A stretch of 64,000 nucleotides of DNA from positions 2,104 to 66,103 of the forward strand of contig LBTB01000001.1 in NCBI GenBank assembly GCA_000989305.1, written 5' to 3'. Source of the stretch: Candidatus Shapirobacteria bacterium GW2011_GWF2_37_20. GTDB lineage: Bacteria > Patescibacteriota > Microgenomatia > UBA12405. Positions within the stretch are counted from its first letter, which is position 1; each line of letters starts with the position of its first letter. The position numbers were made by a program, and so were the translations under genes. The notes under the pieces were generated by a model. It did not search any database. It was not told the origin of the DNA and was given only the letters and a program-made list of their open reading frames with translations. Below, piece after piece: positions 36,328 to 56,495 of the stretch.

Positions 36328-38067
36328 ATGAATGATGTGACGAAAGTTTATAAAAAATTGTCGGATGTTTTATTGGATAAGGGGCTGATCGATGCGGCTA
36401 AGGCGGAAGAAATAAATTTAAGACAGGTAAAAACTGGTGAGAGTGAGGAAGAAATTATTAAATCGATGAGGATTTTGTCCGATTTGGATTTCACAAAAAA
36501 TAAGGCTGAATTTTTAAGGATACCTTTTGTTGATTTGGAAAATACCGGATTTTCTCCAGAGGCATTATCTTTAGTGCCTCAAAGTGTGGCGGAGAAATAT
36601 CATCTGGTCCCCTACCGGATGGAGCCTAAAGACAAATCTTTGTATGTGGCCATGAGTAATCCGCTTGATTTGGAAACAGTTGAATTTTTGGAGAAGAAAA
36701 CCAATCTTAAAATTAGAACCGCCATGTCTCCCGAGGCCCAAATCGACTCTTTTATTAGGGAAAAATATGAAAGAGAGAAAGGGATAACTTCAGAAGTTAG
36801 CAAGGCTTTGGATGAACAAAAAGTCGACGAGATGAAAGTGCAGTCAGAGAGTATGAAGAAAGTGTCGGCGGAGGCCCCTATTGCCAAAATTGTAACTACT
36901 ATTTTGGATTATGCAGTCAGGTCGAGAGCTTCAGACGTTCATATTGAACCAATGGAGGAAAATGTGAGGATAAGATACAGAATTGACGGTATTTTGCAGG
37001 AAAAATATATACTTCCCCGAAATGTGTTGGACGCCGTGGTAAGCCGGGTAAAGATTTTGGCGAATCTAAAAATTGATGAAAAAAGAATTCCTCAAGATGG
37101 CCGCTTTAATTTTAATCTTGACGGCAACGAGGTTGATTTGCGTATTTCAACCCTACCGGTATCTTATGGTGAAAAGGTGGTAATGCGTTTGCTGAGGAAA
37201 GCCTCAAAGGTGCCATCTTTGCCAGACTTGGGTTTAAGAGGTTTGGCCTTAAAAAATTTAATCGAAGCAATTGAAAGACCCCATGGAATAATTTTGGTGG
37301 TCGGGCCGACGGGTTCGGGTAAAACGACGACTCTATATTCGGTTTTGGATCGGGTAGCGACATCAAAAGTTAATGTGGTGACAATTGAAGACCCGGTGGA
37401 ATATCAAATGAAGGGGGTCAATCAGGTTCAGGTAAATGTTCAGGCCGGTTTAACTTTTGCTTCAGCCTTAAGATCATTTTTACGACAGGATCCAAATATT
37501 ATGATGGTGGGAGAAATCCGGGATACGGAAACGGCGGAGCTGGCTATCAATGCGGCACTGACCGGACATTTGGTTTTTTCAACTTTACATACTAATGATG
37601 CTTCCGGGGCACCGCCAAGACTGATGGATATGGGAGTGGAACCATTTTTGTTGACCTCGTCTTTGACCTGTGTGGTAGCTCAGCGGGTTTTGAGAAAAAT
37701 TTGTCCTAATTGCCGTCAGGACATGGAAATTCCTTCAGATAAAGAGACAGAGTTAAAGAGTACTCTAGGTCCGATTTACACTATGATTGAAGAAAAGTGG
37801 AAAAAGGACGGTAAAAAAATGACAATGCCCAAAATCGTTGGTTGTGATAAGTGTAATAATACCGGATATTTAGGGAGAATTGCTATATATGAGGTGATGC
37901 CGATTACGGAAAAAATTAGTAAGTTGGTGGTAGAAAAAGCCGCGGCGGCTATGATTCAAAAAGAAGCTATTAATGAAGGAATGTTAACCATGAAACAGGA
38001 CGGTTATGTCAAAGTACTGGAGGGGGTAACCAGTATGGATGAAGTGTTAAGAGTTGCCCAATATTAA
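36328..38067 (+). CDS. pilB: Type IV pilus assembly ATPase PilB (GspE family)
   Basis: N-terminal GSPII_E_N domain. Walker A 'GPTGSGKTTTLYS'. Asp/His boxes. Tetracysteine 'CPNC...CDKC'. Confidence 0.92.
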   Translation: MNDVTKVYKKLSDVLLDKGLIDAAKAEEINLRQVKTGESEEEIIKSMRILSDLDFTKNKAEFLRIPFVDLENTGFSPEALSLVPQSVAEKYHLVPYRMEPKDKSLYVAMSNPLDLETVEFLEKKTNLKIRTAMSPEAQIDSFIREKYEREKGITSEVSKALDEQKVDEMKVQSESMKKVSAEAPIAKIVTTILDYAVRSRASDVHIEPMEENVRIRYRIDGILQEKYILPRNVLDAVVSRVKILANLKIDEKRIPQDGRFNFNLDGNEVDLRISTLPVSYGEKVVMRLLRKASKVPSLPDLGLRGLALKNLIEAIERPHGIILVVGPTGSGKTTTLYSVLDRVATSKVNVVTIEDPVEYQMKGVNQVQVNVQAGLTFASALRSFLRQDPNIMMVGEIRDTETAELAINAALTGHLVFSTLHTNDASGAPPRLMDMGVEPFLLTSSLTCVVAQRVLRKICPNCRQDMEIPSDKETELKSTLGPIYTMIEEKWKKDGKKMTMPKIVGCDKCNNTGYLGRIAIYEVMPITEKISKLVVEKAAAAMIQKEAINEGMLTMKQDGYVKVLEGVTSMDEVLRVAQY

Positions 38068-38070
38068 ATA

Positions 38071-39138
38071 ATGCATAGCAAAATTGAAGAAGTATTGAGA
38101 TTGGCAGTAGCCAATAAGGCGTCGGATGTTCATTTGTGTTTTGGATTGACACCAAAAATGAGAATTAATGGTGAACTGTCTGAGATTACGAATATTGGAG
38201 TGGTTGATGACGGGGAATTAATTTTGTCCTTATTATCAGAAGAACAGAAAGAGAGGTTTTTGAAAGAAAAAGAACTAGACTTTTCTGTCACGATGGACAC
38301 GGCCAGATTTAGAGCCAACATTTATACTCAAAAAGGGCTTCCGTCTTGTGTTTTGAGAGTAATTTCAGATGAAATACCGGAGCTGGAAACTTTGAATTTA
38401 CCGGAGACTTTAAAAACTTTTACCCAGTTAAGACAGGGTTTTATTTTAATCACCGGTCCGACAGGACAAGGTAAGTCAACCACGGTGGCGGCGATGCTTA
38501 ATGAAATAAACAAAAGTGCAAGCACAAACATTGTGACAATTGAAGACCCGGTGGAATATATAATTAAACCCCTAAAATCGATTATTTCTCAAAGAGAATT
38601 GGGGGGTGATACTGTTAGTTTTGACCGGGCTTTAAAATCAGCCTTAAGGCAGGATCCCAATGTTGTCTTTGTGGGAGAAATGCGTGATCTGGAAACGATA
38701 CAGCTAGCTTTAACTGTGGCGGAAACGGGACACTTGGTTTTTTCAACTTTACATACTAATTCAGCGTCTCAAACAATTGACAGAATTGTGGATGTTTTTC
38801 CTGAGGGTTCAAAACCGCAGATTAGAATTCAATTAGCTTCTGTGTTATCGGCCGTAGTTTCTCAGAGATTAATTCCGGCGATAAGGGGAGGTCGGGTGCC
38901 GGCGGTAGAAATTTTGACGGCTTGTGCGGCGACAGCTAATACAATTCGGGAAGGAAAAACTTTTATGATTGATAATGTGATTCAGACAGGGGCGGATCTG
39001 GGAATGGTAAGTTTGGAGATGTCTTTAGCGCGTTTAGTCAAAAAAGGCCTGGTGGACGAGAAGGTGGCGATGAGTTATGCAACGAAACCAGTAGAATTAC
39101 AGAGTTATTTAAGAAGTTTAAAGCAGGATAATGGCTAA
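38071..39138 (+). CDS. pilT: Type IV pilus retraction ATPase PilT
   Basis: Walker A 'ITGPTGQGKSTT'. 'VFVGEMRDLETI' and 'GHLVFSTLHTN' PilT motifs. 355 aa. Confidence 0.9.
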   Translation: MHSKIEEVLRLAVANKASDVHLCFGLTPKMRINGELSEITNIGVVDDGELILSLLSEEQKERFLKEKELDFSVTMDTARFRANIYTQKGLPSCVLRVISDEIPELETLNLPETLKTFTQLRQGFILITGPTGQGKSTTVAAMLNEINKSASTNIVTIEDPVEYIIKPLKSIISQRELGGDTVSFDRALKSALRQDPNVVFVGEMRDLETIQLALTVAETGHLVFSTLHTNSASQTIDRIVDVFPEGSKPQIRIQLASVLSAVVSQRLIPAIRGGRVPAVEILTACAATANTIREGKTFMIDNVIQTGADLGMVSLEMSLARLVKKGLVDEKVAMSYATKPVELQSYLRSLKQDNG

Positions 39139-40345
39139 ATTTGTATACCGGGCCAAGGATTGGAGCGGAAAATTGGTCAGGGGGGAGTTAGAAATGGGCT
39201 CAAAGAAAGAAGTGGTGGAATCGATAAAGGGTAACGGGTTGATTCCCCTATCGGTGGAAGCAGTAGCGAGTAATTTTTTTTCGGAGATTAATAAAAAAAT
39301 AAAGGGTAGGGTTAACTTAAAACAAGTCAGCACTTTTACCAGACAATTATCGACGATGATGACTGCCGGTTTACCTCTAACTGACGCTTTAGCCTTATTG
39401 AAAAATCAGCAAAGTGAAAATGATGGTTTATATCAAGTTTTGGAAAAGACCTTGGAAGAAGTTCGGGCGGGAATGCCTCTGGGAAAATCTCTTGAAAAAT
39501 ATAAAAATATTTTCGGGGAGGCTTATGTGGCTTCAATTTCAGCCGGTGAAGAGGCCGGAGTATTGGATGAAGTTTTGGGAAAGCTGGCTACTAACCTGGA
39601 AAATCAAAACGAGTTTCAAGGAAAGGTTAAGGGGGCAATGATTTATCCGGTAATTGTGATTGTGGCCATGATAATTGTGGTGTTTATTATGATGATTTTT
39701 GTAATTCCGAAGTTAACCGGATTATATGCGGATTTTGGGACGGCAAAAATGCCGGCGGCGACCCAGGCCCTGATGTCAGTTTCCGCTTTTATGGCCAAAA
39801 CCTGGTACTTGTTTCCAGTATTAATTGCTGGAGGGTATTTTGCCTATTCTGTGGGGATAAAAAGTGAAAAATTTCGGTTGAAAAAGGATAGTCTACTGTT
39901 GAAGATACCGATTGTGGGGGTGTTGAATGAAAAATCAATTATGGCCAATACCTGTCGAACTTTTTCCATGTTGTTAACGGCAGGAATTACTCTGGTTGAG
40001 GCGCTAAAGATTGTGGCTACGGTTTCAGGAAATGAGGTTTATAAAAAAGCCTATCTGCAGATTGCTGAGAAGGTCCAAAAAGGTTTTTCAGTGGCAACAT
40101 CTTTTGAAAATACGAGTGTGTTTCCGATAATTGTTAACCAAATGATTTCTACAGGTGAGGCGACGGGAAAATTGGATGACGTATTGATGAGGGTGTCTGA
40201 TTATTTTTCAAAAGAAGCTGAAGAATCGGTGAAAGCATTAACGGCGGCAATCGAACCGGCAATTATGATAATTCTGGGAATTGGGGTAGGGTTTCTGGTA
40301 ATAGCGGTGGTGATGCCGATATATAACTTGACATCGTCATTTTAG
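39131..40345 (+). CDS. pilC: Type IV pilus inner-membrane platform protein PilC (GspF family)
   Basis: Two GspF repeats, 3 TM helices. 404 aa. Confidence 0.9.
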   Translation: MAKFVYRAKDWSGKLVRGELEMGSKKEVVESIKGNGLIPLSVEAVASNFFSEINKKIKGRVNLKQVSTFTRQLSTMMTAGLPLTDALALLKNQQSENDGLYQVLEKTLEEVRAGMPLGKSLEKYKNIFGEAYVASISAGEEAGVLDEVLGKLATNLENQNEFQGKVKGAMIYPVIVIVAMIIVVFIMMIFVIPKLTGLYADFGTAKMPAATQALMSVSAFMAKTWYLFPVLIAGGYFAYSVGIKSEKFRLKKDSLLLKIPIVGVLNEKSIMANTCRTFSMLLTAGITLVEALKIVATVSGNEVYKKAYLQIAEKVQKGFSVATSFENTSVFPIIVNQMISTGEATGKLDDVLMRVSDYFSKEAEESVKALTAAIEPAIMIILGIGVGFLVIAVVMPIYNLTSSF

Positions 40346-40389: not shown

Positions 40390-41061
40390 ATGAAAAAAGC
40401 ATTTACGTTGGTAGAACTACTGATCGTCATTGCCTTGATTGCTATTTTGTCGGTAGCAGTTTTGGCCACAATTAATCCTATTGAACAAACGAATAAGGCT
40501 CGGGATGCTAAGTTTAAAAACGATGCAGCCGAAGTTTTGAGCGGATATGAAAGATTTTTTGCCTCTCAGAATAAATATCCCTGGAATATGGATAATGATG
40601 GTTTGGGTAGCATTGATAACGGTGAGGTGGCCTCAGGTGTAAATAATATTGCCTTTTTGTCAAGAGATTGGAGGTTTGGAGTTTTGGATGAAACAGGAGC
40701 GGCGAGCGGTCAATTAATTACGACCTCGGAGTTAAAAACTGCTTTTGGAAGTAGCAAAGAACCTTTTGATGATACGGTAGTCGCTGGAAGTGAGGACGCA
40801 ATGTACATGTTTCATTCCAATGATTCAAATTACGTTTGTTTTTGTCCTAAAGCTAACGCTAACCGGACTGGGGCTGTTGCCAGTCAGTTGAAGTGTTTGG
40901 ATAGAGTTGAAGCCGTGAATGCTACTGTCGATGTTTCAACGGCAACCTTAAGTGATTTGGGTGGAACTTGTTTAGCGGCAGCTGATCCAAAGGCTAACGG
41001 TTTTTGTGATTTAGGAACTACAGCTAATCTTCTCTGTGTCCCAGAAGGTGATATAAATTAA
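40390..41061 (+). CDS. Type IV pilin (candidate major pilin)
   Basis: Class III signal 'MKKAFTLVELLIVIALIAIL' (Glu5). C-terminal Cys pairs. First pilin after pilBTC and followed by a strong terminator. Confidence 0.85.
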   Translation: MKKAFTLVELLIVIALIAILSVAVLATINPIEQTNKARDAKFKNDAAEVLSGYERFFASQNKYPWNMDNDGLGSIDNGEVASGVNNIAFLSRDWRFGVLDETGAASGQLITTSELKTAFGSSKEPFDDTVVAGSEDAMYMFHSNDSNYVCFCPKANANRTGAVASQLKCLDRVEAVNATVDVSTATLSDLGGTCLAAADPKANGFCDLGTTANLLCVPEGDIN

Positions 41062-41075
41062 AAAATCATTGTAGA

Positions 41076-41105
41076 TTTTCAACCCCGTCGCAAGGCGGGG
41101 TTTTT
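41076..41105 (+). terminator. Rho-independent terminator after major pilin gene
   Basis: 'aaccccgtcgcaaggcggggttttt'. GC stem then a T-run. Confidence 0.6.
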
Positions 41106-41129
41106 GGTGGAAATAAGTTACAATTAACT

Positions 41130-41888
41130 ATGTATTTGTTTTTAGGAATTATGATTTTTTTGTTGGGGTTGTGTGTTGGGAGTTTTATCAATATGGCCTT
41201 GTGGCGGGTGGGAAATAACAAGTCACTGCTTAAAGAAAAAAGAAGCTATTGTGATTTTTGTAAAAAGAAATTGAAATGGTATGACAATGTCCCGGTGTTG
41301 TCCTTTTTAATTTATAAAGGAAAGAGTCGGTGTTGTGGAAAAAAATTGTCACCCTCCTACCCTATTGTGGAAATATTGACCGGAATAATTTTTGTTTTGA
41401 ATTTTTACTATTCAACTACCTATCTACTACTCTTTTTAACTTTTATAATCTTGGGATTGTTGGTTTTCGAGGCAGCTTTTGATTTTAAATACATGACCTT
41501 ACCTGATTTGACAGCCTTTTTATTAATTGGCCTGGCTCTATTGAGGTGGTTAGTGTTGGGAACGCCAAAATCCTTTTTGGTTTCGGCCTTAATATCGGGG
41601 TTATTTATTTTGCTTTTGCATAAAATTAAGATACGGGGTCATGAAGCCATGGGTGACGGAGATATTTTATTGGCGGTATTTATGGGATTATTTTTAGGTT
41701 TTCCCAATATTGTTGTCGCCTTTTATATAGCATTTGTGATGGGGGCGATTGTTGGCGGGTTTTTAATATTAAAAAAAATAGTAGGACGGCTGACCCCAAT
41801 TCCCTTTGGTCCCTTTCTGATTTTGGGAACAGTAGTGGCTTTTTGGTGGGGAGAGAAAATAATAAGGATTTTAGAGATTAGATTTTGA
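41130..41888 (+). CDS. pilD: Prepilin peptidase PilD (A24 family)
   Basis: N-terminal Zn-binding 'CDFCKKKL...CCGKKL'. Multi-TM. Conserved Asp-containing loops ('GDGD'). Confidence 0.88.
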   Translation: MYLFLGIMIFLLGLCVGSFINMALWRVGNNKSLLKEKRSYCDFCKKKLKWYDNVPVLSFLIYKGKSRCCGKKLSPSYPIVEILTGIIFVLNFYYSTTYLLLFLTFIILGLLVFEAAFDFKYMTLPDLTAFLLIGLALLRWLVLGTPKSFLVSALISGLFILLLHKIKIRGHEAMGDGDILLAVFMGLFLGFPNIVVAFYIAFVMGAIVGGFLILKKIVGRLTPIPFGPFLILGTVVAFWWGEKIIRILEIRF

Positions 41889-41927
41889 GACTAGAAAACA
41901 TAATTAAAAAAGAAGTAGAATAAATAA

Positions 41928-42575
41928 ATGAAGAAAAGTGGAATAACGCTGGTGGAAATATTGATTGTAATGGCGATTATTTTGTTACTGATTGCAGTGG
42001 CGATTGGGGCTTTGAATCCGATTGGAATAATGAATCGGGCCCGGGATGCACAAGTAAAAAAAGATTTGAACCGAATTAGAATTTCTTTTGAGGATTATTA
42101 TAACGACAAGGGTTGTTATCCAAACAGAGAAAAGATAGAGGAGCTGGCTTTAGGGAGTAATTGTGATTCTAAAGTTGTTTTTAGGCCGTGGATGGCCAGT
42201 TGGCCTTGTGATCCGAATGATAAACCTTACCAGGTGTTGATAGGTTATGATGAAAATTGCCCAAAATGGTTTAAAATATTGGCTTCTTTGGAAAATAAAA
42301 CGGATAAAGAAATTTCTTATGAGCTGGTGACTGAAGGAACTTTGGCGGTAGGATCTACTGCTTATAACTATGGAGTTTCCAGCGGCAATATTACAATTGA
42401 AGAAATCACTGGTTTAAAAGATCCTTATTGTGGAAATTTGGGCAGTTGCTATTATTATCCGGCTCCAAATATGTGCAATAAAACTGATAGTAGCGGGTGT
42501 TCCGGGACGAATTGTTATTTGGGAGAATGTAGTGTCCGCTGTCATGTGAGTTGCTGTGGTCCAGGATGTGATTAA
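41928..42575 (+). CDS. Prepilin-type protein with Cys-rich C-terminus
   Basis: 'MKKSGITLVEILIVMAIILLL' signal. C-terminal 'CGNLGSCYYYPAPNMCNKTDSSGCSGTNCYLGECSVRCHVSCCGPGCD'. Confidence 0.75.
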   Translation: MKKSGITLVEILIVMAIILLLIAVAIGALNPIGIMNRARDAQVKKDLNRIRISFEDYYNDKGCYPNREKIEELALGSNCDSKVVFRPWMASWPCDPNDKPYQVLIGYDENCPKWFKILASLENKTDKEISYELVTEGTLAVGSTAYNYGVSSGNITIEEITGLKDPYCGNLGSCYYYPAPNMCNKTDSSGCSGTNCYLGECSVRCHVSCCGPGCD

Positions 42576-42598
42576 AAAATATGTTAAATTTATATAAG

Positions 42599-43111
42599 AT
42601 GAAAAAAGCATTTACCTTAGTTGAACTATTGGTGGTAATTGCGATTATGGGTATTTTGACTATGATAACCGTGTCACAGTTTCAAACGGCTAAACGTAAA
42701 GCTAATGATGTGGCTAGAAAAGGAGATTTGAATGCGGTGGCTAAAGCTTTGCAAATGTATTATACGGACTACAGTGTGATGCCGGAGATGGATAATGTTG
42801 CTGGTGGTCAAATTGCGGTGGGGGGGGTAACGAAAGCCTGGGGGGCGGAATTCAATGATGCTAGTGGTTATGTTTATATGAAGACTTTACCCAGAGAAAA
42901 TAATGATGCTTTACCGGCTTATTGTTATAAAACGGATGCTAACAAAAAGTTCTATGCTTTATTTGCGATGCTGGAAAATGGGGTTGATAGTCAGTGTGAT
43001 CGAAACAATGACGGGATGGCAGACGTGACCTATCGGTGCGGAGGAAATTTATATTGTTTTGCTTATGTCAGCCCTAATACTAGTTTAAATACAGATGGTA
43101 GCTTCAAATAA
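42599..43111 (+). CDS. Prepilin-type protein
   Basis: 'MKKAFTLVELLVVIAIMGIL' (internal Met of ORF 42581). Confidence 0.8.
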   Translation: MKKAFTLVELLVVIAIMGILTMITVSQFQTAKRKANDVARKGDLNAVAKALQMYYTDYSVMPEMDNVAGGQIAVGGVTKAWGAEFNDASGYVYMKTLPRENNDALPAYCYKTDANKKFYALFAMLENGVDSQCDRNNDGMADVTYRCGGNLYCFAYVSPNTSLNTDGSFK

Positions 43112-43538
43112 GAAAGCCTTTACTTTGATCGAATTGCTAGTGGTAATCAGTATTATTGCTACACTTACGGCAATATTGTTGCCAAATTTTATGGGGGCTA
43201 GGGAAAGGGCGGCTGATTCCAACAAAAAACAGGGTTTAGTGGCGATAAAAAATGCCTTAAGACTTTTTTATAATGACACCCAAAATTACCCTTCTTCAAC
43301 AAATATGACTGAGTTAGAAACGACACTGGCCTCCTATATGCCAAGTATTAGTGGAATTGGTTTCACTTATAGTTACGCTCAAACCAATGGTGGCGATGGG
43401 TTTCAATTATGCGTTGAGGTTGATTCGGGGGGAAATGAAATTAGTGTTTCACAAGCTCAGTGCAAGGATGCCATTAATCAGGTGTGCGGGACAACGATCA
43501 GTAGCAACTTAAAATTATTTGTTGTTTGCGCTAATTAA
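43095..43538 (+). CDS. Prepilin-type protein
   Basis: 'NKKAFTLIELLVVISIIA'. Two C-terminal Cys. Confidence 0.75.
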   Translation: MVASNKKAFTLIELLVVISIIATLTAILLPNFMGARERAADSNKKQGLVAIKNALRLFYNDTQNYPSSTNMTELETTLASYMPSISGIGFTYSYAQTNGGDGFQLCVEVDSGGNEISVSQAQCKDAINQVCGTTISSNLKLFVVCAN

Positions 43539-43542
43539 AAAT

Positions 43543-43971
43543 ATGAAAAAAGCTTTTACCCTATTTGAACTATTAGTCAGCATTTCGATTATCGGAATTT
43601 TAGTGGCAGTGGCATCGACTTCTTATAGCGGGGCTCAGAAAAAGGCCAGGGATTCGAGAAGAATGGAAGATTTGAATAGTATTCAAAAAGCCTTGGAACT
43701 ATATTACAGTACCAATCCAACCAGTCCTTTTACTTATCCGTCAGTAAGCGGTGGTCAAGCTGTGGGAATGACACCGGTCTATATTCAAAGTTGGCCAAGG
43801 GATCCAAAGACCGGAATACCTTATGTTTATAATTTTAATGTGCCGGCGGCGGGGAATTATTGCGTTGGGGTAAGCTTAGATTATCCGGTGGGTAATTGTC
43901 CCAACCCTACTACCTGTGTGGGCATTGGAGCGAGTGCCGCCTCCTATTATTGTGTTAAAAGCCAACAATAA
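43543..43971 (+). CDS. Prepilin-type protein
   Basis: 'MKKAFTLFELLVSISIIGIL'. C-terminal Cys pairs. Confidence 0.8.
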   Translation: MKKAFTLFELLVSISIIGILVAVASTSYSGAQKKARDSRRMEDLNSIQKALELYYSTNPTSPFTYPSVSGGQAVGMTPVYIQSWPRDPKTGIPYVYNFNVPAAGNYCVGVSLDYPVGNCPNPTTCVGIGASAASYYCVKSQQ

Positions 43972-44016
43972 ACAAAGAAAGAAGTTAGAGATTAGAAAAA
44001 GATTTTAGAAATATAA

Positions 44017-44409
44017 ATGAAAAAAAACAAAAAAGGATTTAGTTTTATTGAGTTGATTGTAGTGGTGACGATAATAGCGGTACTGAGTGTGGTGGGAGTG
44101 GTAAGTTATGGGGCAATAAATAAAAAATCTCGTGATTCACGGCGTATTTCTGATTTAGCAAATATGCGCATGGCCCTGGAGGCGATGAGGCAAATTGGGA
44201 CGACTTATCCCCTAGACAGTAGCGGTTTACCCGTGGGATTAGCACCAACTTACATGGAAGTGTTGCCCAAGGATCCAAAAAGCGGGTCATATTTTTATAC
44301 TCAGCTTTCCAGTGGCTATAGATACACAATTTGGGCAAAAATGGAGGATTTAGGTTCAACTACAGGGGATTATGGTAGTGGCTATAATTACCAGGTAAAC
44401 AACCCATGA
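44017..44409 (+). CDS. Prepilin-type protein (canonical Gly at -1)
   Basis: 'MKKNKKGFSFIELIVVVTIIAVL'. Confidence 0.8.
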   Translation: MKKNKKGFSFIELIVVVTIIAVLSVVGVVSYGAINKKSRDSRRISDLANMRMALEAMRQIGTTYPLDSSGLPVGLAPTYMEVLPKDPKSGSYFYTQLSSGYRYTIWAKMEDLGSTTGDYGSGYNYQVNNP

Positions 44410-44888
44410 AACGGGCTTTTAGCCTGGTGGAAATTTTGGTTTTGGTAACGATATTGGCTGTTATTTCTGGTGGAGCTCTGGTGTATTTAAATAGTTTTAA
44501 TTCTCAACAAAAATTAAATAAGGGAAGAGATGAAGTGGTTTTGGCTATAAAACTGGCGCAGAGTTATGCCAAGACCAGACAGTTGCCGGTTGGTTCGGAT
44601 GAAACAGAGTTGAGATATGTTCAACTGCAAATAAAGGACGGTAATTTAGTGGCTGGAGCTAACGGGATCGGTTCGACTTATTTTAGTATTCGGATTGGTA
44701 ACGAGGGAATAGGAGTAAGTATTTCTCCTCAAGTGATTTATTTTTGGGCAGGAAATGGTTTTTGGGTAAAAGATGAGCTGGGAACTTTAAACAGCAACAA
44801 TGAGAAGGCCGAGGTAACTATCGAGCAAAAAAACATAATAATTAGTCAGGAAAAAATTGAAATAAATAGTTTGGGACAAATTCAATAA
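44406..44888 (+). CDS. Minor pilin-like protein
   Basis: 'MKRAFSLVEILVLVTILAVISGG'. Paralog of the N-terminal 110 aa of the next gene. Confidence 0.7.
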   Translation: MKRAFSLVEILVLVTILAVISGGALVYLNSFNSQQKLNKGRDEVVLAIKLAQSYAKTRQLPVGSDETELRYVQLQIKDGNLVAGANGIGSTYFSIRIGNEGIGVSISPQVIYFWAGNGFWVKDELGTLNSNNEKAEVTIEQKNIIISQEKIEINSLGQIQ

Positions 44889-44930
44889 AATTAATAAAAA
44901 ATATATTGTGATTGTGCTAAAGTTTTATTA

Positions 44931-45710
44931 GTGAAGAGTAGTTTTACCTTAATAGAATTGTTGATTTCTTTTACGATTTTGGCAGTAATTTCGGGCGGAG
45001 CTCTGATGTATTTAAATAATTTTAATGCTCAACAGAACCTGGACAAGGTAAGCAATGAAGTGGTGTCTTCGTTGAAATTATCGCATAGTTACGCAAAAAC
45101 AAAACAAGTACCGATTGGTTCAGCTGAAACAGAGCTGAGATATATACAAGTTCAAATGGTGGGAAGCGGCATTGTGGCCAGGGCAAGCGGGATAGGAGAA
45201 ACTTTTTTTGACATTAAGATAAATAATAATGGAATTGGGGTGAGCTTTTCTCCCGGGGTAATATATTTTTGGGCAGGAAATGGTTTTTTGTCACATGATG
45301 GTGCTGGAGAAATGTATGGAGCTGGAGAGACGGTGACAATTACCGTTCAATCACAAAATAATTTTATTGGTTATAACGCAATAATAGTTGACGCTTTGGG
45401 TCAAGTGAAGTTAATAAGCTACAATGAGGGTGTGCTTCCTAGTCGAGTACCGACGGCAGTACCAACAACAGTAGTACCAACGGTGGCACCAACAACAACA
45501 ATACCAACGGTAACACCAGTACCAGTCTGTAGGTTGGGCGGGGTTGCTTGTGGTGTTCACAGTGATTGTTGCTCTTATTATTGTAGTAGTGGTGCCTGTC
45601 TGGGTGTGCCATCAGCAACACCAACATTATCTTGCAAGTTGGGTGGGGTTGCTTGTGGTGTCCATGGTGATTGTTGCTCTTATTATTGTAATCTTAATTT
45701 TTGCAATTAA
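44931..45710 (+). CDS. Minor pilin-like protein with Thr/Pro/Val linker and two tandem Cys-knot-like modules
   Basis: GTG start 'MKSSFTLIELLISFTILAV'. 'TAVPTTVVPTVAPTTTIPTVTPVPV' linker. Duplicated 'C(R/K)LGGVACGVH(S/G)DCCSYYC' modules. Confidence 0.7.
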   Translation: MKSSFTLIELLISFTILAVISGGALMYLNNFNAQQNLDKVSNEVVSSLKLSHSYAKTKQVPIGSAETELRYIQVQMVGSGIVARASGIGETFFDIKINNNGIGVSFSPGVIYFWAGNGFLSHDGAGEMYGAGETVTITVQSQNNFIGYNAIIVDALGQVKLISYNEGVLPSRVPTAVPTTVVPTVAPTTTIPTVTPVPVCRLGGVACGVHSDCCSYYCSSGACLGVPSATPTLSCKLGGVACGVHGDCCSYYCNLNFCN

Positions 45711-45714
45711 AAAT

Positions 45715-46134
45715 ATGATTGTCGTAAAAAGAAAAGCCCAAGGAGTAATTGAATCAGTATTTGCTGTCGGGATATTGGCGTTGTTGCTGACCGGGGCAGT
45801 AATATTGGTGATTATGGGAATTGCCAATAGACGGAGCAGTTTTGACAGAAGAAAGGCAACAGAATTGGCAAGCATAACCATTGAAGAACTGATTAGCATA
45901 AGTCAAAATAATCCTGAAGAGTTTTGGCGACTGACAAATGTCAGCAATCTAAGAAAGGATGGTTATGATGGTTATTCTTATTCAATTTCTTTTACCAATG
46001 TTAGTGGTGACATTAACTATCCTCAGTGCGGAGTCGGGAAAACTGATTGTGCTGAAGCAGTGGTGTCAGTCGGCTGGTCGGGAAAGACGGAACAGAGTTT
46101 ATATTTTAACCGTTTTTTCAGCAAAAATGACTAA
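45715..46134 (+). CDS. Hypothetical membrane-anchored protein, possibly pseudopilin-like
   Basis: 'MIVVKRKAQGVIESVFAVGILALLL' is a noncanonical prepilin-like N-terminus. Internal Met of ORF 45544. Confidence 0.45.
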   Translation: MIVVKRKAQGVIESVFAVGILALLLTGAVILVIMGIANRRSSFDRRKATELASITIEELISISQNNPEEFWRLTNVSNLRKDGYDGYSYSISFTNVSGDINYPQCGVGKTDCAEAVVSVGWSGKTEQSLYFNRFFSKND

Positions 46135-46621
46135 AAAAGCTTTTACCTTAATCGAAACTTTGGTAGCAGTGGGGGTGTTGGCGGTGTTGATGGTGACTGT
46201 GGGAGCAATTTTGTTGATGTCGCTCAAATCAAAAAATTCAACGGAAGTTAATGAGTCAATGTCCTCGATTGCAGTATTTACTTTAGGAGAATTAAAGAAA
46301 AATATTTTTGATGCTCAATTGGGTCAGATAAATTGTCCGGTTGATATCGGGAATTCGATTAGTTTTATGACTAAAAGCGGTGGTGTGACTACCCTACTCT
46401 GTGACGAGGCTAGTGGAGAAGTTGCGTCGGTATCGGCCAGCGGGAATAATTATTTTTTGAACGAAAAAGTCAGAATTCAAAATTGTAATGATTTTGTATG
46501 GTGTACCCTGTCGGCTGATTCAGAAATATTGTCGATTGGATTTAGTTTAAATTTGGTGACCGGTGGTGATGGAGTGGGAAATTCGGGAATCTTTCACGGA
46601 GCAGTGACCCCAAGAGACTGA
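46127..46621 (+). CDS. Minor pilin-like protein
   Basis: 'MTKKAFTLIETLVAVGVLAVL'. Internal Met of ORF 45959. Confidence 0.7.
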   Translation: MTKKAFTLIETLVAVGVLAVLMVTVGAILLMSLKSKNSTEVNESMSSIAVFTLGELKKNIFDAQLGQINCPVDIGNSISFMTKSGGVTTLLCDEASGEVASVSASGNNYFLNEKVRIQNCNDFVWCTLSADSEILSIGFSLNLVTGGDGVGNSGIFHGAVTPRD

Positions 46622-46763: not shown

Positions 46764-48056
46764 ATGATTGAAAAAATGACTGAAATAAAAAATGGAGCTA
46801 GTAGAGGCTCTTGGAGAAGAGCTTTTAGTGGAGCTGCGGCTGGAGTAATTGCGGCTACCACTATTGCAGGTTGTGGTGAAACTATTAAAACTGCGGTAGT
46901 TGATCCGACACCAACTTTAGAAGCTTCCCCGGTATCGGGAACTGGAGAGTTTTCGGTGTTGTTTACCCCAAATAGTTTGCAGAATCTAGATGCTGAGGCC
47001 AAAGCGATTGTGAGCAAGAACTTGGAATTAATTAATCAGGAATGTAATCAAGACTTACCGGGAAGAATGATGCCCGGGAGCGAGAAGTATCTCTTTGCTA
47101 GAAACAAGAGTAATGAAACTTTTATTTGGGGTTTTTGTGATGTGGCCTCGGCTGATGCACCGCCAAAAACGGTGGTGTCAATGTTTGATTGGACGGCAGG
47201 ACCTTCGGGAGAGACGCAAAAAATTTATCAGGATTTAGTAGCTTTTGATGATGGCACTATGGGTTATGTGGACAGTAACGGCAATTCTCATGCGATTTTG
47301 AAGATAAATAATGACAACATGATTGAGGTTTATGATATTAATGAAAAAGTGGTGGCAGAGCAAGTAATGACGTCGGAGGCAATTGGATTTTTTGATGGAA
47401 TAAAAAATGTTAGTGGAAATTTTGAGCCAACAGCGATAGCAACTGAGGTAGCCAAAAAAACATACGATATCGATATGGAAAAGTTTTTTAATGCAGCTCC
47501 AAGTTATGAATATATGGTGGCTCATCCTGACGAATACGTTGAGGCTCCTGATTTATTGAGCGATGTCGAAGCTTTTAAAGATTGGTATTACAATAAATAT
47601 ATTCCGGCTTTGTGTGAGGGAAATAAATATAGAATGGAGACGAATGTTTATATGGGTGCAAGTGGATTTGATAAATCGGGAAATTTACAGATTTCCGCAA
47701 TGGATGGGATTGCAGGTCCGTTAACTAATAAATTGCCGATGGCTTTTTTCATACACGATGAAATTCTTTTTCCCATTTTGGCTTTTACTGTAGATAATGT
47801 TAATAATGGTAATATTGGTACTTATTCAATTATTTTGCATGAGAAATATGGCGGAAGAGATGGTTTTGAAGCGATAAGCAACTTATATGGGGGAAAAAGG
47901 GTTATAAATTTGACAGGAGAGATTTCAGTAGGGCCAGAAGAGTTTAATTCTGATGTAAGAAAAGAGTTTTTTATGACTGATTTTAATTGGGTTGATGTCG
48001 ATAGTAACTTTACTAATTTTAGAATTGGTTTGGGTGGGGTAATAACGAGCGATTGA
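46764..48056 (+). CDS. Putative lipoprotein (430 aa)
   Basis: Signal peptide with lipobox 'TIAGCG'. No further domain recognised. Embedded in the pilus locus. Confidence 0.6.
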   Translation: MIEKMTEIKNGASRGSWRRAFSGAAAGVIAATTIAGCGETIKTAVVDPTPTLEASPVSGTGEFSVLFTPNSLQNLDAEAKAIVSKNLELINQECNQDLPGRMMPGSEKYLFARNKSNETFIWGFCDVASADAPPKTVVSMFDWTAGPSGETQKIYQDLVAFDDGTMGYVDSNGNSHAILKINNDNMIEVYDINEKVVAEQVMTSEAIGFFDGIKNVSGNFEPTAIATEVAKKTYDIDMEKFFNAAPSYEYMVAHPDEYVEAPDLLSDVEAFKDWYYNKYIPALCEGNKYRMETNVYMGASGFDKSGNLQISAMDGIAGPLTNKLPMAFFIHDEILFPILAFTVDNVNNGNIGTYSIILHEKYGGRDGFEAISNLYGGKRVINLTGEISVGPEEFNSDVRKEFFMTDFNWVDVDSNFTNFRIGLGGVITSD

Positions 48057-48100: not shown

Positions 48101-48574
48101 ATGAAATGGTGGTATGTGGTAGTGTTGATGGTTGGGGTGGGAATTGGTTGGTGGATTTTAAAAAATTATGGAGTTAAGAAAGAGGTATCTTTCGGTGGAG
48201 TAGTGGAGGAAAGTATTGTTCTGGGAGAAGTGGCGAAATTGCCAACGATAATTATTTCCGACAATAAGGGAAAAAAGGTGGAAGCAGTGGCGGTGGATGG
48301 AGGTATAGTTCAAAAATGGAGCCCGGAAACGGGGGAAATTGAATTTATCAGGGAAGAAAAATTATGGAAATTGACAGTTAATCCGACTGAGGCGATGATT
48401 ACTATTCCAAATATAAGTGATAGAACAAGGATAATTTTGGTCTCAGATAAAAGTAGTCTGCATTGGAAAACTGCATTTTGTAAGGGTGACTTTGTGTCGA
48501 TTAGGTTGAGCGGAAATAAGGTGATGGCCATTGATAATGGCGGTTATAGATCGTGTGGATTTAAAGGCGAATGA
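48101..48574 (+). CDS. Bitopic membrane protein
   Basis: N-terminal TM 'MKWWYVVVLMVGVGIGWWIL'. 157 aa. Stop overlaps the start of the next gene. Confidence 0.5.
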   Translation: MKWWYVVVLMVGVGIGWWILKNYGVKKEVSFGGVVEESIVLGEVAKLPTIIISDNKGKKVEAVAVDGGIVQKWSPETGEIEFIREEKLWKLTVNPTEAMITIPNISDRTRIILVSDKSSLHWKTAFCKGDFVSIRLSGNKVMAIDNGGYRSCGFKGE

Positions 48575-51155: not shown

Positions 51156-51953
51156 ATGAAATTAAAAAAGATGATAAGTAATTATAAAAGAGGGCAAGTG
51201 GCCATAATTGTGTTGTTGGTTTCGGCAATGATGATGACCTTGGGATTGTCGCTATCTAAAAAGGCAACCACAGAAACCAGAATTGACATTAATGAAGAGT
51301 TACTGAAGAAAGCTTTTAATGCGGCAGAATCTGGAATTGATTATTATCTGGGAACTGGCAACCTTACTTATAATGCGCCAGACAATTTATCTTCAGCCGA
51401 GATAACAGCCAGGGACATTACTGGTGAGGGTAACATTTTGGATTTTGGAGAGTATGTACCAATTAACGGATCCGAATTTTATTGGCTAGTAAACCATTTG
51501 GATAATGGGGATATTGGGGTGACTTATTACGGAGCGGCAACGGTGAATGTGTGTGGCACCGGATTTACGGGATCGATGGAGATAAATTATTTTTATAAAA
51601 CAGGAGCGGAATATGGTGTCAACAGGTATGGCTATAATTTCAGCAGTGATGTAACTAAGCAGGTAAATGGTTTTACGGCCGGAACCGGAGGTTGTGCCAC
51701 TATAAACATTGTTAACAGTCCAATTTTGATTACGGTTACTCCCATTTTTAATGGGGGGAGGTTTTATTTGAGTGGTTCGGGTACTTTTCCAATTCAGGGG
51801 GTGGAGATAAGCTCGAGAGGAAGATCGGGAGGAGTGTCGGTGGATGTTTCCGAAACTCAGGCAAATAAAAAATTAATAGTGTTGCGACGTTATAAGATCC
51901 CCTCTTTTATGTTGTCAGGAGTAGTTTCTGAAACTTCGGTATTGAGCGATTAG
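51156..51953 (+). CDS. PilX-like minor pilin/pilus assembly protein
   Basis: N-terminus 'KRGQVAIIVLLVSAMMMTLGLSLS' resembles the PilX_N domain. Confidence 0.55.
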   Translation: MKLKKMISNYKRGQVAIIVLLVSAMMMTLGLSLSKKATTETRIDINEELLKKAFNAAESGIDYYLGTGNLTYNAPDNLSSAEITARDITGEGNILDFGEYVPINGSEFYWLVNHLDNGDIGVTYYGAATVNVCGTGFTGSMEINYFYKTGAEYGVNRYGYNFSSDVTKQVNGFTAGTGGCATINIVNSPILITVTPIFNGGRFYLSGSGTFPIQGVEISSRGRSGGVSVDVSETQANKKLIVLRRYKIPSFMLSGVVSETSVLSD

Positions 51954-54160: not shown

Positions 54161-55189
54161 ATGAGTGATATTATTGGGGTTGATTTAGGACTGGGAAGTA
54201 TTAAAGTAGTGGCCTTGAATAAAGGTCAGGATAAGTTTACTTTGGCGGCAATTGGAGAAGTCAAGACTCCAAACGGTGAGTGGATGAAATCGGGGGCAAC
54301 TAAAAAAAATGTAGAAGAAGTGGCGATAACTTTAAAAAGCTTGATTAAAGATTTGAAGCTTGGTAACAGACAAGCGGTAGTGGCTTTGCCGGAGTACGAA
54401 ATTGTCAGCCGCTTAGTATCATTACCGCCTTTAAAAGAAAGTGAGATTAAAGATGCCTTAAAGTTTGAAGCGGAGACCTTTGTCCCCTACCCTTTAGATA
54501 AGGTGTCAATTGATTATGAGGTGATTGAGGAAGATGAGGCGGGACGTTTGACGGTGTTTGCGATTGCCGCCAGAAATGATTTGATTGCCAATTACGTTAA
54601 GATATTTAGGGAAGCAGGTTTGGAATTGTTAGCAATTGAATCACCGGCGGTATCAATGCGACGGGTATTAAAACAAATTGCCACGGCTTCTGAGGCAACT
54701 ATGGTGGTGGATATCGGACAAAAGTATTCCGATATCATTGGTTTCAAAAGCGGTAATATTTATTTTGCCAGATCGATGTCGGTTGGAGGCGAATCTCTGA
54801 CCAGAGCAATTTCAGTTAATCTTGGTTTAGATGAGGCCTCAGCTGAGGAATATAAGAAAGCCTATGGTATAAAAGAAATGGAACTTGAGGGTAAAATCAA
54901 GAATGCTATTATGCCGGTTTTCAACAGTATGGCTGAAGAAATTCGACGGGCAATGGCTTTGTATGCGGAAAGTAATAATAAGACAATTGAGCTTTTAGTT
55001 TTAAGTGGAGGCGGAGCAAAAATGCCGGGTCTGGCCGAGGAACTAACTAGATTGTTGGGAATTGAAGTTCAAGTGATTCAGCCTTTTTTAAAAATTGACA
55101 GTCAACAAATTGTGGCCCCGATTGATTTGGGGGTTGAAGGTTATAGGTTTTCCACTGCAGTGGGATTGGCGCTGAGAGACATGGTATGA
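54161..55189 (+). CDS. pilM: Type IV pilus assembly protein PilM (actin-like ATPase fold)
   Basis: 'IIGVDLGLGSIKVVAL' N-terminal phosphate-binding motif. 342 aa. Confidence 0.85.
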   Translation: MSDIIGVDLGLGSIKVVALNKGQDKFTLAAIGEVKTPNGEWMKSGATKKNVEEVAITLKSLIKDLKLGNRQAVVALPEYEIVSRLVSLPPLKESEIKDALKFEAETFVPYPLDKVSIDYEVIEEDEAGRLTVFAIAARNDLIANYVKIFREAGLELLAIESPAVSMRRVLKQIATASEATMVVDIGQKYSDIIGFKSGNIYFARSMSVGGESLTRAISVNLGLDEASAEEYKKAYGIKEMELEGKIKNAIMPVFNSMAEEIRRAMALYAESNNKTIELLVLSGGGAKMPGLAEELTRLLGIEVQVIQPFLKIDSQQIVAPIDLGVEGYRFSTAVGLALRDMV

Positions 55190-55743
55190 AAACGGGAGAC
55201 AGTTCACATCTAAATTTGTTACCAAGTCAGGCAAAGTTTCAGGCAGCCAGAATGAAACTCCAGGCAACCTTGAGACAATACATGTCTTTGGTGGTGGTTT
55301 TTTGGGTGGCTATGGTAGTAGTAGTTGCGGCTTTATATTTTGGAAGCGAATTTATTTTGAATTTACAAAATAAGAAGTATGACCAGGCGATGAATAGTTA
55401 TGGAAGCTTGTCACAGGAGATTGTAGTAAATCAATTGTTAAAATATAGGGCCAAAATTTTAGGACAAGTTCTTAAGGACCGTTTTGAATATTCTTTTGCT
55501 TTTGAAAAAATTAATTCAATTTTTGAACAAAGGGCTACGGTGTCAAATTTTGAGATTAGTGAAAACAGGGACTTTGTGGTTGAAGTTGAAACTACGGACA
55601 GGGAAGGGGTGAATTTTGTTGAGGATAAAGTGGCGGAAATTAATAAAGGAAATGACGAGGGAGTAAAAAGTGTTAAGCTTTTGGGTGCAAGTTATATGAT
55701 AAATGGTGTTTGGAGTATAAATATGGAGGTGAAGCTGAAATGA
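55186..55743 (+). CDS. pilN: PilN-like pilus assembly protein
   Basis: 'LNLLP' motif followed by a single TM. Translationally coupled to pilM. Confidence 0.7.
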   Translation: MKTGDSSHLNLLPSQAKFQAARMKLQATLRQYMSLVVVFWVAMVVVVAALYFGSEFILNLQNKKYDQAMNSYGSLSQEIVVNQLLKYRAKILGQVLKDRFEYSFAFEKINSIFEQRATVSNFEISENRDFVVEVETTDREGVNFVEDKVAEINKGNDEGVKSVKLLGASYMINGVWSINMEVKLK

Positions 55744-56495
55744 CAAAGGGATTAAATTTACCGGATAAAATTTTTGGAATTGATAGTCGGATTTTATTAT
55801 TATGGTTGCAACCACTCGGATTACTTTTAATCATAATAGTGAGCGTGTTGACGGTGATGTTGCCCAAAATTGATGAAATATCAGAAAAAATGAAGGAAAT
55901 AAAGGCAGTTACCAGTAAAACTGTGGAAGTGAATCAAAAAAGGACTTATTTGCAAACAGTTGATCAGGGAGAAACTTTAAATAATGCCAAAAAATTAGCT
56001 GACGCTTTGTTGCCGGAAAGAAACTCCTATTTACTGGTCAGAATAATTAGGGATGCGGCGGCACAGAGTGGCTATAATGTTGACGATTTTTCAATTAGCA
56101 TGGGAGATGTTAAAAACGAGGAAGTTAAAAAAGATAATAGTAATTACGACAAGATACCGGTCAGCATTACTTTGATTGGGCCAGCTGATAATTATATTAG
56201 TTTGGTTAAAGCCATTGAAAGAACTTTGCCGATAATGTCGATTGATAACTTTGAAATGAGGTCGCAAAACGGAGTGGCTACAATTAGATTAAACGTGATG
56301 GCATATTATTTGCGGGATATTTCGAATTTAAAAATAGAGAATCTGACTTTAGGAGATTTAACTCCCAGTCAGGATGAGGCGACCTTATTGTCCACTATTA
56401 ATGAATATCAAACAATGGTGGTTGAGGGTGGTTTAAATGAGAGTGGAGATGATTTTGTTAGGTACGAGAGACAGGATCCTTTTTCTACTCTTTGA
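55710..56495 (+). CDS. pilO: PilO-like pilus assembly protein
   Basis: Single TM then periplasmic domain. Position after pilN. Confidence 0.6.
   Translation: MEYKYGGEAEMTKGLNLPDKIFGIDSRILLLWLQPLGLLLIIIVSVLTVMLPKIDEISEKMKEIKAVTSKTVEVNQKRTYLQTVDQGETLNNAKKLADALLPERNSYLLVRIIRDAAAQSGYNVDDFSISMGDVKNEEVKKDNSNYDKIPVSITLIGPADNYISLVKAIERTLPIMSIDNFEMRSQNGVATIRLNVMAYYLRDISNLKIENLTLGDLTPSQDEATLLSTINEYQTMVVEGGLNESGDDFVRYERQDPFSTL

Follow-up and report, generated by a model that had tools for sequence, protein, structure and literature searches.

In the type IVa pilus (T4aP) and type II secretion systems of the Pseudomonas aeruginosa PilA/PilD type, the pilin leader is a class III signal peptide whose last residue, at position -1, is described as an invariant Gly, with Phe at +1 and Glu at +5 of the mature protein. 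The enzyme that processes it, PilD, is a bifunctional A24 peptidase with two catalytic Asp residues, the second of which is part of a GxGD motif. Here we describe a type IV pilus (T4P) locus of Candidatus Shapirobacteria bacterium GW2011_GWF2_37_20, found in a stretch of 64,000 nucleotides that we call the window (GenBank assembly GCA_000989305.1, contig LBTB01000001.1, positions 2,104 to 66,103 of the forward strand). The class III signal peptide, F+1, E+5, and the predicted bifunctional A24 enzyme with its two catalytic Asp are shared with the canonical systems, but seven of the ten pilins have Ala at -1. The window PilD also differs from the canonical enzyme, since it has no Lys after GxGD-x, is acidic both four residues before the first catalytic Asp and at the x of GxGD, and carries two adjacent cysteines (CC), in place of CxxC, as its second cysteine pair.

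The residue at -1 is not treated in the same way throughout the literature. According to a 2015 review, bacterial leaders invariably end with Gly and archaea show many exceptions (PMC4471445); a 2023 review from the same laboratory states that the leader ends in "Gly or Ala" (PMC10191384). The PilFind paper describes PilD as cutting at glycine or alanine and uses the motif [GAS] at -1 (PMC3244431). Top-down mass spectrometry of Streptococcus pneumoniae ComGC showed that cleavage follows Ala15 and that the protein is N-methylated (PMC3694846). The five Com pilins of S. sanguinis, which are processed by ComC, all have leaders that "invariably end with an Ala", and ComGC remains unprocessed without comC expression, from which the authors infer that the T4aP PilD cannot recognize Com pilins (bioRxiv 10.1101/2023.09.19.558370). 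Ala-1 itself is already known, and a precedent for a dedicated peptidase exists. In the light of these papers, the premise of the initial annotation of this DNA, that Gly-1 is near-invariant and normally required, was overstated and is outdated.

The streptococcal Com pilus (ComGC-GG, processed by ComC, which is called PilD in S. pneumoniae) is like the system of the window in that its Ala-ending leaders are followed by F-T-L-(V/L)-E, its peptidase is a bifunctional A24 enzyme, and it belongs to a monoderm and works without a secretin. It is encoded by a minimal comGA-GG operon with an ATPase, a platform protein, five pilins, and no PilT or PilMNO, whereas the window has PilT, PilM/N/O, and ten pilins. 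The leaders of the window are 4-8 residues long, against 8-15 in Com pilins, and the invariant Ala of the Com pilins contrasts with the Ala, Gly, and Ser that coexist and interchange at -1 in the window. The Pfam matches to PilT, PilM, and a PilO-like protein, the ten pilins, and the mixed -1 residues set the locus apart from a Com system.

Archaeal class III peptidases count Ala and Ser among the residues accepted at -1, and they are not known to have an N-terminal methyltransferase domain. The substrates of the archaeal FlaK, PibD, and EppA resemble the pilins of the window by their non-Gly exceptions at -1; archaeal pilins often lack Glu5 (PMC4471445), whereas all ten pilins of the window have it and their PilD carries an A24_N_bact domain. 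T4P loci are near-universal in the candidate phyla radiation (CPR), where pilB, pilT, pilC, pilD, and pilM are clustered with several pilins and no secretin is present (PMC11623550; PMC7143001). The window locus resembles these CPR T4P, including T4P-1 and T4P-2 of Saccharibacteria TM7x and the T4P of Microgenomates Ch65. The two CPR papers (PMC11623550, PMC7143001) contain no -1 analysis, and our literature searches found no paper that addresses the -1 residue of CPR pilins. With pilB, pilT, pilC, pilD, and pilMNO clustered together with several pilins, as in the T4aP of monoderms and CPR, the locus is an ordinary monoderm-type T4aP of a CPR/Microgenomates bacterium with an already known leader variant. 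What distinguishes it among the Microgenomates clusters that we sampled is the number of Ala leaders: most of these clusters are all-Gly, and Ala-rich sets of pilins are found only in the clade that includes the window.

Ten Pilins with Ala, Gly, or Ser at -1

To find pilin-type N-termini, all six frames were scanned for Glu at +5 together with an uncharged hydrophobic stretch and a start codon close by, the residue at -1 being left free. Exactly ten were found on the + strand between 40390 and 46621. Each has Glu5, Lys or Arg in its leader, and an uncharged hydrophobic segment 20 or more residues long; the residue at -1 is Ala in seven, Gly in two, and Ser in one. The tally given by the initial annotation was borne out, as was the conservation of Glu5 and of the hydrophobic helix. 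The same annotation had seven N-termini reading KKA/FTL(V/I)ELL (the slash marks the cleavage site): the seven Ala residues stand, but only five of these pilins read KKA/FTL literally, the others being KRA/FSL and RKA/QGV.

The probable major pilin, p1 (40390..41061, + strand, as are all genes described here), starts with MKKA/FTLVELLIVIAL (MKKA/FTLVELL), its Ala codon being GCA. The same leader and codon are found in p3 (42599..43111; MKKA/FTLVELL). The other Ala pilins are p4 (43095..43538; MVASNKKA/FTLIELL, codon GCC), p5 (43543..43971; MKKA/FTLFELL, GCT), p7 (44406..44888; MKRA/FSLVEIL, GCT), the minor pilin p9 (45715..46134; MIVVKRKA/QGVIESV, GCC), and p10 (46127..46621; MTKKA/FTLIETL, GCT). 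Gly, encoded by GGA in both cases, precedes the cleavage site in p2 (41928..42575; MKKSG/ITLVEIL), the C-terminus of which is Cys-rich, and in p6 (44017..44409; MKKNKKG/FSFIELI). The Ser pilin is p8 (44931..45710), which begins with a GTG start codon and reads (M)KSS/FTLIELL with the Ser codon AGT.

At the gathering cut-off of 21.2 bits, the Pfam family N_methyl (PF07963) recognizes seven of the ten, with scores from 23.0 to 30.4 bits (p1, 26.3; p2, 23.0; p3, 29.5; p4, 30.3; p5, 26.2; p6, 30.4; p8, 24.6). The score of p10 is just below the cut-off (20.6 bits) and that of p7 further below (17.3 bits), while p9 has no Pfam match; p7 and p9 were recovered by the motif scan. Orthology and synteny support the pilin status of all ten. 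Nine of them agree with a definition that takes Gly or Ala at -1 and all ten with the [GAS] of PilFind, whereas a strict Gly-only rule fails for eight.

The predicted register of cleavage is fixed by Glu5, which is invariant in the ten pilins. Cleavage of p9 after its Gly (KRKAQG/VIES) was considered and rejected, since it would place the Glu at +3; the L003 orthologue, one of the related loci described below, also argues against that register, with Ser at the position of this Gly (KKA/QSIVES). The -1 site of p9 is the residue before Gln, because the orthologue of locus L005 reads MRKG/QGVVES, Gly replacing Ala at that position.

The genes of p7 and p8 (44406-45710) are tandem paralogues and correspond to a single copy in most relatives. 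Besides its single-Lys leader, p8 has a linker rich in Pro and Thr and, at the C-terminus, two Cys-rich repeats (C..GG.ACG.H.DCCSYYC), each of about 25 residues, with a weak match to the Pfam conotoxin family Toxin_19. The protein could be a modular pilin whose tip domain resembles a knottin.

Exchange of Gly, Ala, and Ser between Orthologous Pilins

The gene order of the locus is syntenic, with intact open reading frames (ORFs), in more than 15 Microgenomates genomes or contigs; the related loci come from metagenome-assembled genomes (MAGs) of Shapirobacteria, Woesebacteria, and Patescibacteria. The Ala-rich clade is defined by PilDs at least about 56% identical to that of the window, and it was sampled through the window and nine other genomes with a syntenic locus (PilD identity about 90% for L006 and L008; 61-70% for L001, L002, L003, and L005; 58-66% for L090, L091, and L096). 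The pilins of these relatives were assigned to the ten orthogroups of the window by BLAST and gene order.

Ala is found at -1 of p1 and p3 in all ten genomes of the clade, and Gly at -1 of p2 in eight of the ten, L091 and L096 having Ala. In the other orthogroups (p4, p5, p6, p7/8, p9, and p10), Gly and Ala replace each other, even among L006, L008, and the window. Gly is present at -1 in the p4 orthologues of L006, L008, and L001, the p5 orthologue of L006, the p10 orthologues of L008 and L001, and, at the same position, the p9 orthologues of L005, L090, L091, and L096. Conversely, the p6 orthologues of L008, L003, L091, and L096 have Ala. The p8 orthologues of L006 and L008 read MRRG/ with the Gly codon GGT where the window has the Ser codon AGT, which implies that the Ser arose by a single G-to-A transition. 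In L006, the pilins are divided equally between Gly and Ala (five of each), and its PilD is about 90% identical to that of the window.

Parsimony on a neighbor-joining tree of PilD gave at least 18 Gly-to-Ala and 6 Ala-to-Gly changes at -1. The proportion of orthologue pairs that differ was 31% at -1, 34% at -2, and 43% at -3, against 11% at +1, 12% at +3, and 0% at +5. The interchange of Gly, Ala, and Ser between orthologues excludes a strict switch of S1 specificity. Judging from these sequences, the PilD of the window would have to accept Gly and Ala at -1, and probably Ser as well.

Clade Specificity of the Ala Bias

To place the Ala leaders in a wider context, the -1 residues were counted in three groups of loci. 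The Ala-rich clade has 61 Ala, 26 Gly, and 1 Ser. The sister and outgroup clusters (L092-L095, L097-L099, L010, and L017), most of which have the flanking genes of the window (ligA, fic, and holB), have 8 Ala, 55 Gly, and no Ser. In 80 distant metagenomic PilD loci, 10 Ala, 147 Gly, and 5 Ser were counted. The difference between the clade and the syntenic sister clusters is significant (Fisher p = 2e-12). Seven Ala among the ten pilins of the window would also be improbable at the frequencies of the distant loci (10/162 Ala; binomial p = 3e-7) or of the sister clusters (8/63; p = 4e-5).

The leaders of the two groups differ in style as well. Lys or Arg occupies -2 in 86% of the leaders of the clade, compared with 48% in the sister clusters, and -3 in 91%, compared with 46%; the median length is 4 residues in the clade versus 7 in the sister clusters. 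The 117 homologues of p1 comprise 34 with Ala and 83 with Gly at -1, and nearly all of them share the same 12 residues at the start of the mature protein (FTLVELLIVIAL). The Ala forms mostly have the minimal leader M[KR][KR]A, whereas the Gly forms have longer leaders; the mature N-terminus of p1 is identical in the Ala-rich and sister groups. As far as these alignments go, the bias toward Ala is derived and belongs to a single monophyletic clade of PilDs.

Two other sources of the Ala codons were considered. Base composition or strand bias was rejected: both groups have a GC content of 32-44% and a coding-strand G>C skew of +0.19 to +0.29, and this shared skew disfavors GGN to GCN changes, so composition does not explain the bias. 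Gene conversion that would have spread a single MKKA leader was not supported either, since the Ala codons (GCA, GCC, and GCT) and the flanking codons differ among the paralogues.

Clade-Specific Residues of PilD

The gene that the initial annotation had named as pilD (41130..41888) encodes a predicted bifunctional prepilin peptidase/N-methyltransferase with matches to A24_N_bact (98.6 bits) and Peptidase_A24 (PF01478, 40.1 bits). The catalytic residues Asp118 (FDFKYMTLPD) and Asp178 (GDGD) are invariant in the PilD alignments. Three residues of the window PilD are specific to the clade: Glu114, Asp176, and Leu180. In the region of the second Asp, the 79 closest homologues, with an identity of at least about 56%, without exception read G[DE]GD-x-[LFY], whereas more distant ones have G[MFI]GDVK. 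A systematic contrast between the groups singled out Glu114, which is replaced by Ser or a hydrophobic residue elsewhere; in a survey of roughly 70 PilDs, only those of the Ala-rich clade had Glu at this site, four residues ahead of the first catalytic Asp.

A sequence search returned no bacterial PilD homologue in the PDB. In an AlphaFold2 model of PilD (predicted local confidence, pLDDT, of 84), residues 98-121 form one helix that holds both Glu114 and Asp118, which would put Glu114 one turn from Asp118, and the Asp178 helix begins with the residues from Asp176 to Leu180. Compared with the sister clusters, the alignments and the predicted structure indicate that the PilD of the clade has gained two carboxylates and lost the conserved Lys180 around the catalytic dyad. 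At the three positions, the sister PilDs of the L092 or L097 type have Ser114, Met/Phe176, and Lys180. The motif of the GxGD region taken alone was tried as a predictor of Ala and rejected, since L098, L099, L021, and L030 lack the Lys and are yet Gly-rich.

The four cysteines of the predicted Zn site in the methyltransferase domain of PilD are arranged as C41-x2-C44 ... C68-C69, the second pair being adjacent and not CxxC. This adjacent CC (SRCCGKK) is present in all 18 Microgenomates PilDs that were aligned, while L023, L026, and L030 keep CxxC.

Evolution of the Leaders and Their Peptidase

We consider it rather probable that the -1 position of the pilins of this clade needs only a small residue, with Gly, Ala, and occasionally Ser swapping by single-nucleotide changes, and that a clade-derived Ala bias accompanies a relaxed recognition of the leader. 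By homology, the single PilD of the locus would cleave ten prepilins with short dibasic leaders, typically M-K-K-A, at the cytoplasmic face of the membrane after the small residue, and presumably N-methylates the new N-terminus of the pilin. The predominance of Ala would have arisen from all-Gly ancestors by parallel Gly-to-Ala replacements in every pilin paralogue, and the shift would have come together with shorter leaders and with Lys or Arg at -2 and -3. The PilD of the clade would have gained Glu114 and Asp/Glu176 beside the catalytic aspartates and lost the usual Lys180, changes that may have relaxed or shifted the recognition of the leader. The dibasic leader (Lys at -2 and -3) could be anchored electrostatically on the new acidic residues, and Ala might then be as good as, or better than, Gly. 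The outcome would be a relaxed specificity and not a strict new specificity of S1. The initial annotation had proposed a PilD co-adapted to Ala-1 with an altered S1 pocket: a strict switch is contradicted by the coexistence of Gly, Ala, and Ser and by the flips between orthologues, while the clade-specific PilD residues and the Ala bias are real features of the alignments, and co-adaptation of enzyme and leaders is plausible on these comparisons. A further-reaching proposal is that the clade, centered on Shapirobacteria, evolved a distinct specificity class of prepilin peptidase, in which the flanking carboxylates and the loss of Lys180 would let M-K-K be read electrostatically and independently of Gly, the ten paralogues having followed; we put it forward tentatively and think it rather unlikely.

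Several observations weigh against a coupling of PilD and leaders. The correlation concerns one monophyletic clade and is effectively one evolutionary event. Ala-1 pilins stand beside a canonical GxGDVK PilD in L094 (two), L095 (one), and L097 (one), and in L010, whose PilD is also canonical, the major pilin has Ala at -1. In a separate lineage, position -1 changes among Ser, Ala, and Gly between the orthologous pilins of L023 (993-2800) and L026 (2122-3900), with both Ser codons AGT and TCT in one orthologous pair, and the PilD (GLGDLRIG) has none of the three features. The PilD of L099 (GEGDAPLA) has an acidic x, no Lys, and Ser four residues before the first catalytic Asp, and its pilins are 7 Gly and 1 Ala; L098, with GMGDVLLA, has 2 Gly pilins. 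The Gly use of L099 and L098 means that changes in the GxGD region alone are not sufficient. PilD is the sole A24 homologue in the window, no second A24 peptidase being found there, and this result spans only 64 kb of the genome. The Ala-1 major pilin of L010 next to a canonical PilD and the use of Ser and Ala in L023 and L026 would be expected under neutral drift, in which peptidases generally tolerate Ala and, weakly, Ser, the clade drifted to Ala, and the changes in PilD hitch-hiked. Drift would also account for the free flipping of Gly, Ala, and Ser between orthologues, the six Ala-to-Gly reversals included, and for the presence of Ala-1 at 6-13% beside canonical PilDs, and it agrees with the "Gly or Ala" ends that reviews give for leaders. 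The PilD of P. aeruginosa reportedly still cleaves a G-1A pilin, as Strom and Lory are said to have found in 1991. Against drift, for the share of Ala to climb from about 13% to the roughly 69% seen in this one clade, parallel Gly-to-Ala replacements were needed in all ten paralogues, and these ran against the strong G>C strand bias common to both groups; moreover, p1 and p3 are fixed for Ala clade-wide, and the remodeling of the leaders coincides with the changes of PilD next to its active site. We regard drift as possible but doubtful.

An S1 pocket re-specified for Ala, as a requirement or a strong preference, with the Gly-1 pilins as relics, would fit the predominance of Ala, its constant presence in p1 and p3, the clade-specific residues beside both catalytic Asp, and the example of S. 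sanguinis, in which the Ala-only Com pilins use their own ComC and apparently not the T4aP PilD. Such a strict requirement would purge Gly and Ser, so their persistence counts against it: p2 has kept Gly in eight of the ten genomes of the clade, L006 has five Gly pilins with a PilD about 90% identical to that of the window, six reversals to Gly are inferred, and the Ser of p8 arose from Gly. We judge this reading very improbable. The least probable of all, to the point of being hardly credible, is an artefact of start codon choice or of counting genes that are not processed pilins, so that the Ala or Ser would not be the cleavage-site residue. The GTG start and the single basic residue in the leader of p8, the missing Pfam match of p9, and the scores of p7 and p10 below the N_methyl cut-off could raise such a doubt. 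Moved start codons that would expose a Gly, which would have undone the initial annotation, were looked for and rejected: most starts are preceded by a stop codon within a few codons, and the Ala and Ser pilins contain no Gly from the start to the hydrophobic segment. Not only the ten pilins but all their orthologues have Glu5, Gly stands precisely at the Ala or Ser position in orthologues of p4, p5, p7/p8, p9, and p10, and the ORFs are intact and in the same order in all the syntenic genomes.

These leaders matter for annotation, since pilin finders and annotation rules that take only Gly at -1 will miss most pilins of the Ala-rich CPR clade, and p7, p9, and p10 are already at or below the Pfam threshold. 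Little is understood of the way in which GxGD prepilin peptidases recognize a substrate. The Ala-rich and sister groups offer a clean natural pair, with the same mature N-termini but a different leader style and three different residues in PilD. If these three residues are causal, they would mark the leader-binding site of PilD; if they are not, the case documents -1 as a neutral Gly/Ala/Ser site. Were the clade indeed a distinct specificity class, it would provide a natural determinant of -1/-2 specificity in GxGD membrane proteases that can be read from sequence.

Organization of the Locus and Neighboring Genes

Pfam profile assignments place the T4P locus on the + strand between 36.3 and 56.5 kb of the window, in the order pilB-pilT-pilC-pilin-pilD-nine pilins, with pilMNO further downstream. 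The PilB-type extension ATPase (36328..38067) matches T2SSE (437.9 bits) and MshEN (60.5 bits), the PilT-type retraction ATPase of 355 residues (38071..39138) matches T2SSE (163.8 bits), and the platform protein PilC (39131..40345) matches T2SSF in two stretches (210.7 bits). The PilMNO block (54161..56495) consists of PilM (54161-55189; PilM_2, 183 bits), a PilN-like ORF without a Pfam match that owes its name to its position only (55186-55743), and a PilO-like protein with weak matches to T2SSM_b and PilO (55710-56495); the same arrangement is found in L093 and L096. No secretin was seen among the ORFs examined, the window having been profiled in part and not exhaustively. PilD and p1 are each 100% identical to Candidatus Shapirobacteria proteins (a GW2011_GWE1_38-type MAG).

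The GC skew is strong and positive throughout the whole window (1-64000), from +0.11 to +0.42 per 2-kb window and 0.256 overall, and it is also strongly positive in the related Microgenomates loci. This agrees with a G/C strand disparity that has been described in the Microgenomates order UBA1400 (PMC7143001). In some relatives (L090:14616-17002, L094:14076-17861, and L098:3576-4096), the pilin cluster is interrupted or immediately followed by toxin-antitoxin or abortive-infection genes, namely AbiEii with DUF6922, and a HigB/YafQ-like gene; the cluster of the window has none of these.

Downstream of the region 40390-46621, an eleventh pilin-like N-terminus belongs to a protein with a weak PilX_N match (51156..51953, 20.3 bits). 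It reads MKLKKMISNYKRG/QVAIIVLLV (...YKRG/QVAIIVLLV around the cleavage site), with Gly at -1 and no Glu5. An ORF of 860 residues located 3' of the pilins (48571-51153) has two neighbors without a Pfam match (46764-48056 and 48101-48574). The N-terminal half of its product is extremely rich in Cys, as is the C-terminus of p2. The Cys-rich ORFs near the pilins may encode pilus-associated surface or adhesin proteins.

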